DNA from: a phage
Reading direction: 5' to 3' (one strand)
Sequence record: PZ179883.1
Length of the DNA stretch: 64,000 bases
Position numbers and translations under genes: made by a program. The notes under the pieces were generated by a model that saw nothing but the letters and a program-made list of their open reading frames with translations, did not search any database and was not told the origin of the DNA. Shown in pieces: positions 57,593 through 60,274 of this stretch. Position 1 is the first letter of the stretch. Each line of letters begins with the position of its first letter.

Positions 57593-57658
57593 AGTGCTCT
57601 CCTCTATAAGATAATTTTATTATACCATACTCATTTTGGAAAGTAAACCGGTAAAATG

Positions 57659-57682
57659 AAAAAAGGACTCCCGAAGGAGTCC
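57659..57682 (-). terminator. rho-independent terminator downstream of soc
   Basis: Same 18-nt hairpin as at 4388..4405 (GGACUCC-UUCG-GGAGUCC) followed by a U-tract. Confidence 0.6.
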
Positions 57683-57688
57683 TTGAAT

Positions 57689-57934
57689 TTATTCACCAGT
57701 TACTTTCCACAAATCTTCGTTTGCAGTAATCCATTCAGTACGTTGATTTTCTTCATATACTGTAGAATATGCTGCTTTTTCTGAAGGGAATATCTGATAA
57801 TGAGCGCCAGAAATTTTGTGAACGTCAGAATAAAGAGGGAAAGCTACAGAAATTTCCTTTCCTTCAATTTTCTTATTTCCATCTAATTTTTGCTCAAATG
57901 TTTTAATATTAACATAACCGCGAGTACTAGCCAT
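57689..57934 (-). CDS. soc: small outer capsid protein Soc
   Basis: 81-aa ORF MASTRGYVNIKTFEQKLDGNKKIEGKEISVAFPLYSDVHK... matches T4 Soc; late promoter upstream, terminator downstream. Confidence 0.9.
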   Translation of the reverse strand: MASTRGYVNIKTFEQKLDGNKKIEGKEISVAFPLYSDVHKISGAHYQIFPSEKAAYSTVYEENQRTEWITANEDLWKVTGE

Positions 57935-57949
57935 GTAATTCTCCTTTAT

Positions 57950-58159
57950 TTAAATTACATGACTATTTATAATAAATTCTTGCGGAACGTTAAAATACCC
58001 AATTTTAGTTAATATAACAACATCACCGTTAATAATTACCGGAGAATAATCGGCTGGAGCATTAAACTTCCAATGAGCTCTAATATTATATCCATCAGAA
58101 CCAAATGCTCAACTAGCCGGTCTCCCGGCTTTTTGCCATGCATAAAAATCAAATTTCAT
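57950..58159 (-). pseudogene. 68-codon ORF interrupted by an in-frame TGA (possible pseudogene or recoding site)
   Basis: Hand translation: MKFDFYAWQKAGRPAS-TGA-AFGSDGYNIRAHWKFNAPADYSPVIINGDVVVILTKIGYFNVPQEFIINSHVI; no Met after the stop. Confidence 0.35.
57963..57970 (-). promoter_or_regulatory. late promoter TATAAATA for soc
   Basis: Minus-strand TATAAATA about 29 nt upstream of the soc ATG. Confidence 0.6.
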
Positions 58160-58356
58160 TTTGAATGCTCTATAATTAATTTTAAGGCTTCTTCATGCAC
58201 CTTACCTAATTGTATATGTCCAGTTTTAATTGTGTAAGCTTTGTGGAGCTGATTAGATAGGAGCTCGTATGTGAGCTCCTTGTCATAATTTTTAAATAGC
58301 TGGTCAATACGTTTCTTGTGGGCTTTCTTAAGTTGACGTTTATTTAAACGAGCCAT
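58156..58356 (-). CDS. hypothetical basic protein
   Basis: 66-aa Lys-rich ORF immediately downstream of gene 56. Confidence 0.45.
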   Translation of the reverse strand: MARLNKRQLKKAHKKRIDQLFKNYDKELTYELLSNQLHKAYTIKTGHIQLGKVHEEALKLIIEHSK

Positions 58357-58871
58357 TAATAACCTCGGTCTTGACGAGCGAAGTTTTCAGCATTTTTCAG
58401 ATAATAAAGTTTAAAGATTTCTTCAGCCGTAAGACCGAGACCTTGGAACATGTTCAGAACGAAATGAAGAATATCAATCATTTCGAATTTAATTTCCAAC
58501 TGGTCTTGTGGAGACAAATCAGTAATCAGAGTTTCACGACGTTCACCATGCTGCGACTTCCAAGGCTTCCATACAGCAGATGCATCTTTTTCACCATTGC
58601 TCATACCACCAAGAGAAGTCAGAAGTTCACGGAATTCATCATCAATGTAATCTTTCTGATTACGCAGCCAATCAACAACTTCACCCGCAGTAGCCAAATC
58701 ATCAGGATGACGGTTATATTCAGGTTTATCTTTAGCTAAACGAACCTGTAGAGATTTCTGCATATCAAGCATAACCTGCAGCGGGTCTTTTTCATCACCG
58801 AGAATATCCCAGTATTCATTTTGAGCTTTATCAGCGCCTTCGATCAGTTGACTACATTCGTTAAAGTAAGC
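58356..58871 (-). CDS. 56: dCTPase/dUTPase gp56 (MazG-like)
   Basis: Start at MAYFNECSQLIEG with AAGGA RBS; matches T4 gp56. Confidence 0.85.
   Translation of the reverse strand, partial: AYFNECSQLIEGADKAQNEYWDILGDEKDPLQVMLDMQKSLQVRLAKDKPEYNRHPDDLATAGEVVDWLRNQKDYIDDEFRELLTSLGGMSNGEKDASAVWKPWKSQHGERRETLITDLSPQDQLEIKFEMIDILHFVLNMFQGLGLTAEEIFKLYYLKNAENFARQDRGY

Positions 58872-58934: not shown

Positions 58935-60274
<1,340 letters not shown>

Follow-up and report, generated by a model that had tools for sequence, protein, structure and literature searches.

Between soc and gene 56 of a phage, in the 64,000-nt stretch of DNA analysed here (record PZ179883.1; hereafter the window), a minus-strand reading frame is interrupted by an in-frame TGA that stands beside a hairpin. 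A reading of the sequence alone had left three possibilities for this stop, namely a recent nonsense mutation, a sequencing error or a programmed readthrough site, and the question is which of them applies. We identified the frame as soc.1, and it is very probably a T2-type accessory gene that carries a loss-of-function nonsense allele, Arg17 CGA to TGA. The allele is an ordinary inherited pseudogene allele and is neither an error nor a recoding signal.

The interrupted frame is soc.1

The frame occupies 57950..58159 on the minus strand. Its translation reads MKFDFYAWQKAGRPAS, a stop, AFGSDGYNIRAHWKFNAPADYSPVIINGDVVILTKIGYFNVPQEFIINSHVI and a second stop, with the ATG at 58159..58157, the premature TGA at 58111..58109 and the closing TAA at 57952..57950. 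The in-frame TGA is thus where the sequence-only reading had placed it. That reading had also recognised the frame itself, but its count of 68 codons was one short, as there are 69 sense-or-stop codons plus the terminal stop; its hand-made translation was right except for one extra V (GDVVVIL for GDVVIL). Upstream of the stop, 16 codons (58112..58159, minus strand; MKFDFYAWQKAGRPAS) would still be translated. Codons 18-69 and the TAA form a remnant at 57950..58108 (minus strand) that had been described as having no Met of its own, and we found no in-frame ATG, GTG or TTG 3' of the TGA in either the ORF map or the sequence. The remnant is translatable solely via readthrough of the TGA.

The upstream neighbour is an intact soc.2 of 66 aa (58156..58356, minus strand; PHROG 5782, E = 4e-37) and the downstream neighbour is soc, encoding the small outer capsid protein of 81 aa (57689..57934, minus strand), as taken from the annotation of identical relatives. 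The same-strand order of dam (59714..58935), the gene 56 dCTPase (ending at 58356), soc.2, soc.1 and soc (57934..57689) is that of annotated relatives. Placement of soc.1 3' of gene 56 and directly 5' of soc is common to PP01, Shfl2, T2, ime09 and divergent metagenomic homologues; both small ORFs are annotated and intact in PP01 and Shfl2, and they are named soc.2 and soc.1 in Shfl2 and ime09. The soc.1 start codon shares bases with the TGA stop codon of soc.2 in an ATGA overlap, which suggests translational coupling of soc.1 to soc.2. Two distant T4-like metagenomic contigs (L020, L021) carry soc.1 directly after gene 56 with no soc.2, and in a further metagenomic T4-like contig (L018) it is preceded by a different 55-codon ORF. 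Between 56 and soc, soc.1 would therefore seem to be the longer established gene.

Membership of the family was assessed with profiles. The intact Soc.1 of PP01 matches PF24197 (DUF7422) with 155.9 bits against a cutoff of 27, over profile positions 1-69 of 69, and the C-terminal 52 residues encoded in the window (residues 18-69) match PHROG 5773 with E = 3.2e-26. Residues 4-15 of Soc.1 are invariant across the family, while residue 17 varies (R, K or P). The family is small: it comprises 11 clusters at 90% identity, and a profile search of 1.84 billion cluster representatives (50% identity) returned seven matches, all of them T4-like soc.1 forms, so that remote homology gave no hint of a function. 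A profile search of PDB sequences with Soc.1 gave nothing below E = 0.5, and an AlphaFold2 model from a six-sequence Soc.1 alignment (mean pLDDT 62.6, pTM 0.42) was too poor for a fold search. Our literature search found no papers on DUF7422. Family members have an uninterrupted ORF of about 67-74 codons, and the window copy does not, since it is stopped by the TGA at codon 17; it is therefore a disabled member of the family, that is, a pseudogene allele.

The soc.1 of phage T2 (AF374619; Belle, Landthaler & Shub 2002) and the intact 69-aa Soc.1 of PP01, Shfl2, ime09 and modern T2 genomes are the same gene at the same position as the window copy. The only paper on soc.1 that we found in the phage literature is PMC5931544, which, with reference to Belle et al. 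2002, places soc.1 and soc.2 of T2 where T4 has segF. The latter encodes a GIY-YIG homing endonuclease and occupies the same slot between soc and gene 56 without any sequence relationship to soc.1; the window has no segF, and T4 has neither soc.1 nor soc.2. The T4 locus shows only that T4 does without soc.1. The sequence-only reading had assigned both segF and oriA to this T4 interval, which is correct for segF, whereas RefSeq puts oriA at the 5' end of gene 56.

Independent disruptions of soc.1 were found in several relatives. In phage Solly the gene is stopped at codon 8 (W8*, TGG>TGA), in an ENA assembly (L039) it is frameshifted by a +1 insertion, and in a Logan contig (L040) by a -1 deletion. 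The soc.1 of the 2002 T2 record AF374619 (L034) lacks one nucleotide that is present in modern T2 genomes and is annotated as 40 codons because of it, so that this copy is itself cut to 40 aa by a deletion where the window copy is cut by a TGA. Together with the absence of the gene from T4, these disruptions suggest that soc.1 is expendable.

Origin and spread of the stop at codon 17

The premature stop (58109..58111, minus strand) stands where intact alleles have CGA (Arg). In an alignment with PP01, Shfl2 and ESh26, the window soc.1 differs by a single base, which turns codon 17 from CGA to TGA, and C49T is likewise the sole difference from soc.1 of PP01 and LF73P3. A 741-nt query over the region was 100% identical to nine GenBank records from eight Tequatroviruses, including ES21, ES19, ZN18, ECO07P4/5, a51, 107 and DCP2, and 98-99% identical to PP01, Shfl2 and others; a 1-nt length difference in the BLAST alignments sits in an A-run between soc.1 and soc, outside soc.1. 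Since intact alleles read CGA, the stop is explained by one C>T transition at 58111, and the suspected recent nonsense mutation is borne out by orthologues that differ from the window copy by CGA>TGA alone. It had been proposed that the case would fall if related phages showed no conserved ORF across both halves. They have an intact 69-codon ORF that spans both and is under purifying selection, with dN/dS of intact alleles against PP01 of 0.12-0.5. On this pattern of conservation, intact soc.1 is a real gene.

To count the alleles, we used 55-nt megablast queries against GenBank phages with the variable base centred, such that every 28-nt seed spans it. The TGA allele was present in 23 records, corresponding to about 20 phages from several groups and countries, some of the records being RefSeq duplicates or laboratory derivatives. 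The CGA allele was present in 148 records, modern T2 genomes included, and TGA makes up about 13% of soc.1-bearing records. Outside these records, one IMG/VR contig and one ENA assembly have the TGA base too; an exact pattern scan of IMG/VR around codon 17 hit one contig only, the ZN18 genome. In distant homologues from metagenomes and IMG/VR, codon 17 is CCN (Pro) or AAA (Lys). From the allele counts and these other codons it follows that the T is real and heritable, a minority state and not conserved. An error of sequencing or assembly in the window genome had been a possibility a priori, with nothing else in its favour, but the identical T in 23 GenBank records of about 20 phages, from different sequencing groups in several countries, and again in the IMG/VR contig and the ENA assembly, leaves it a negligible probability.

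At least three flanking haplotypes carry the allele, namely the window type, that of YUEEL01/TOPO13 and that of HP3, and the phages concerned are assigned to no fewer than two named species (Tequatrovirus ecombl75, Tequatrovirus yueel1); the allele has therefore persisted for some time. As far as these records tell, it is inherited and circulates in a group of Tequatroviruses. The flanks of TGA alleles are mosaics of blocks common to CGA phages, and the allele was most likely moved onto its several haplotypes by recombination. Such mosaics fit a single origin followed by recombination, and recurrent C>T at codon 17 is also possible. HP3 and its derivatives have an additional change directly before the TGA, codon 16 AGT>TTT, which yields five consecutive T and may be drift in a dead gene. 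TTT at codon 16 was seen in no CGA allele, RB18 reading ATT CGA at this place. Apart from this codon and one decayed relative, every change seen in TGA alleles also occurs in intact alleles, which indicates that the TGA allele is young relative to the mutation rate.

The decayed relative is a 167-kb assembly (L038) in which the TGA is accompanied by a 1-nt insertion and by F56S downstream. These changes look like decay of an untranslated remnant and are supporting rather than decisive, as L038 is a single metagenome-type assembly whose extra insertion could be an assembly error. In the phages with the TGA allele, ribosomes would initiate soc.1 at its ATG, probably by coupling to the end of soc.2 translation at the ATGA overlap, and RF2 would release them once 16 residues are made; the 52 codons that follow, with no start of their own, would stay untranslated except for unprogrammed leakage at UGA allowed by the host. 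That the remnant still looks like coding sequence is explained by the youth of the mutation and by the soc late promoter and the arm of a soc-masking hairpin carried in its 3' end (see below). Since TGA alleles other than L038 show no new downstream damage, persisting selection on the C-terminal part is compatible with the sequences and is possible.

The allele resembles classical opal alleles and pseudogenes of non-essential phage genes. As in these, one transition stops a small dispensable ORF of the early region, and the gene has been disrupted independently and in parallel in relatives, with one lineage showing secondary decay. Nothing is distinctive in the soc.1 TGA by comparison except its fairly wide spread.

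The hairpin and the rival explanations

The hairpin that had been noticed immediately 5' of the TGA is present, with its stem ending three to four bases before the stop. It spans soc.1 nt 30-45 (58115..58130, minus strand) and has a 6-bp stem, AGCCGG/CCGGCU, with the loop GAGA. The palindrome GCCGGGAGACCGGC lies at 58129..58116, and a flanking A-U pair completes the stem (58130..58115), which then ends 3 nt before the TGA. Folded alone, a 27-nt piece with the hairpin has a free energy of -13.3 kcal/mol (z = -4.3 against shuffles), and the degenerate pattern GCYGGNNNNCCRGC would be expected by chance only 0.01 times in the window. The same hairpin occurs elsewhere, in intact alleles and in divergent T4-like phages (L011, L018, L020, L021, L023, L026-L030, L033). 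Over 16 distinct sequences, 97.9% of cells are paired, and neither any of 500 shuffles nor any slid register reached the observed covariation score. The conserved Ala-Gly...Pro-Ala codons dictate four of the six pairs, which leaves just two that are informative. Both show compensatory changes, A-U to G-C at the stem base and C-G to U-A in the middle, and both lie at synonymous third positions (Lys10/Ala15 and Ala11/Pro14); the independent covariation events behind this signal are few. The pairing may possibly be kept by selection on RNA structure, the alternative being templated correction of quasi-palindromes at replication. In all other alleles the hairpin stands beside CGA, CCN or AAA codons. 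It was therefore not acquired with the stop and is older than the TGA.

A recoding site, whether for programmed readthrough, selenocysteine, a suppressor tRNA or a bypass like that of gene 60, would use the adjoining hairpin, and in its favour the hairpin is stable, the frame is open downstream and, as a result of the C>T change, the stem could be extended by CAA/UUG. However, by the time the UGA reaches the A site, the ribosome would have opened a hairpin that lies 5' of the stop, and this one is shared with alleles that have sense codons at the same place. The stop itself is a minority allele (TGA in 23 records versus CGA in 148, with CCN or AAA in divergent homologues) and not a conserved feature. 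Downstream of it, where the +4 base is G, we found no hairpin, the 61-nt fold around the TGA being not significant (z = -1.47), and a search of 57600..58500 against Rfam at E <= 10 found no SECIS or readthrough element, only sub-threshold chance matches. The window contains no tRNA genes, the phage's own tRNA cluster lying outside it; among the 11 tRNAs of ECO07P4, which has the identical allele, there is no opal suppressor with anticodon TCA, and the tRNA-Arg has TCT. TGA terminates 22 of the 61 long minus-strand ORFs in the window, soc.2 among them, and is therefore an ordinary terminator in this genome. A bypass would have to take off from AGT (codon 16), and the sole in-frame AGT to land on is codon 66, with three residues left; the other AGT (soc.1 nt 92-94) would land out of frame. 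The downstream frame is moreover shifted in L038, a single assembly. Known cases such as Q-beta A1 readthrough and bacterial selenocysteine insertion share with soc.1 an in-frame UGA after which the frame stays open, but the soc.1 stop is unconserved and has no 3' element or SECIS, and its hairpin is on the wrong side and older than the stop. Recoding in any of these forms is thus highly improbable. Reinitiation after the stop was also considered and rejected, as the nearest starts (TTG at nt 48-50, ATG at nt 65-67) are in other frames and open short ORFs.

Three further explanations concern what the allele might still do. The change could have left a hypomorph, in which unprogrammed near-cognate decoding of UGA gives a low level of full-length Soc.1, likely with Trp17, that is enough for function and keeps the downstream part under selection. 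Of the stops in E. coli K-12, UGA is the leakiest and most error-prone; random premature TGAs frequently yield product, at about 1-6%, and 14 of 40 TGA reporters were above threshold (PMC11126739). The variability of residue 17 in the family and the undamaged downstream frame of most TGA alleles also fit. On the other hand, the +4 base after the soc.1 TGA is G, whereas the leaky UGA context documented in bacteria has C at +4 (PMC5289835); downstream structure is absent, L038 has decayed further, and many relatives have in any case lost soc.1 or carry it broken. We consider a functional hypomorph unlikely, and trace amounts of Trp17 Soc.1 may nonetheless arise by passive, unprogrammed leakage. 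A related idea is that the invariant first 15 codons and the hairpin form a unit of their own, either an RNA element or a 16-residue micropeptide, or that low UGA decoding supplies sufficient Soc.1 of full length and is tolerated, perhaps even tuned. The TGA allele would then not be null, as the unit would be kept or full-length Soc.1 leaked, and the spread of a TGA allele, rather than a deletion, among several Tequatrovirus lineages would be explained; this proposal is doubtful. The third idea, to which we give a slim chance, is that the C>T change was selected for an effect other than on the protein, through a stronger internal sigma-70 promoter, or because loss of Soc.1 is advantageous, for example in escape from host defence. 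The stop mutation does improve the -35 hexamer of a sigma-70-like site, TTGAGC-16 nt-TATAAT (58085..58112, minus strand), from TCGAGC to TTGAGC; only with the T does this site reach 10 of 12 matches, including a perfect TATAAT. The spread of the allele onto several haplotypes and into different named species and the repeated loss of soc.1 are in line with selection as well. But promoter-like matches are common in AT-rich DNA, with 10 such sites in the region against 5.6 ± 3.0 in shuffles, and promoter creation was given low weight on this account. A transcript from this site would reach soc alone, whose start is masked in long transcripts, and then the terminator at 57684..57663. Triggering of a defence by Soc.1 is purely hypothetical, and neutral spread by recombination accounts for the distribution equally well.

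A plain nonsense allele of soc.1 is therefore the reading that we favour. The interruption is an ordinary segregating nonsense allele, and its significance is small: what looked like a recoding site turns out to be a simple stop mutation in an accessory gene that is dispensable, and the allele is real and occurs in many sequenced phages. As a mildly interesting by-product, compensatory synonymous changes keep the hairpin across divergent T4-like phages.

Annotation of the locus and soc signals within the remnant

The practical value of this assignment lies in annotation, where the locus is to be marked as a soc.1 pseudogene. An alternative-frame ORF of 38 codons (58036..58152, minus strand) is annotated in some records, only where soc.1 is broken, and is left unannotated in genomes with intact soc.1; phage 107 names it 'putative transmembrane protein'. 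Gap-filling ORFs of 35-38 codons were also found at L003 569-685, L016 696-803 and L014 (Solly) 693-800. We rejected the 38-codon ORF as a gene, as it is probably a gene-caller artefact, being annotated just where soc.1 is broken. RefSeq and PHROGs name Soc.1 and Soc.2 'head protein' and 'virion structural protein'. We found no support for these names; they may have been taken over from soc.1 and soc.2, gene names that refer to position.

Signals that concern soc lie in the 3' end of the remnant. The last codons of soc.1 are the 5' arm of a 14-bp hairpin (57928..57965, minus strand) in which the soc.1 3' end pairs with the start codon of soc and with part of the soc Shine-Dalgarno sequence. 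This hairpin has a folding energy of -14.8 kcal/mol (z = -3.49), and one of 200 shuffles folds as well. Macdonald, Kutter and Mosig reportedly described in 1984 that the soc ribosome-binding site is masked in early read-through transcripts of T4. The window hairpin is alike, and we take it to be this known T4 arrangement, which keeps soc untranslated on early read-through transcripts; it concerns soc and matters for soc.1 only in that the 3' end of the remnant is constrained by it. The soc late promoter TATAAATA (57964..57971, minus strand) lies within soc.1 codons 63-65. Late transcripts would start inside the 5' arm of the hairpin and lack most of it, which would free the soc start codon. 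The T2 record AF374619 has a late promoter annotated at the corresponding position. TATAAATA is conserved in the Tequatrovirus alleles; of the four divergent homologues examined, P0002 and P0004 keep it, and in P0005 and P0008 it varies.
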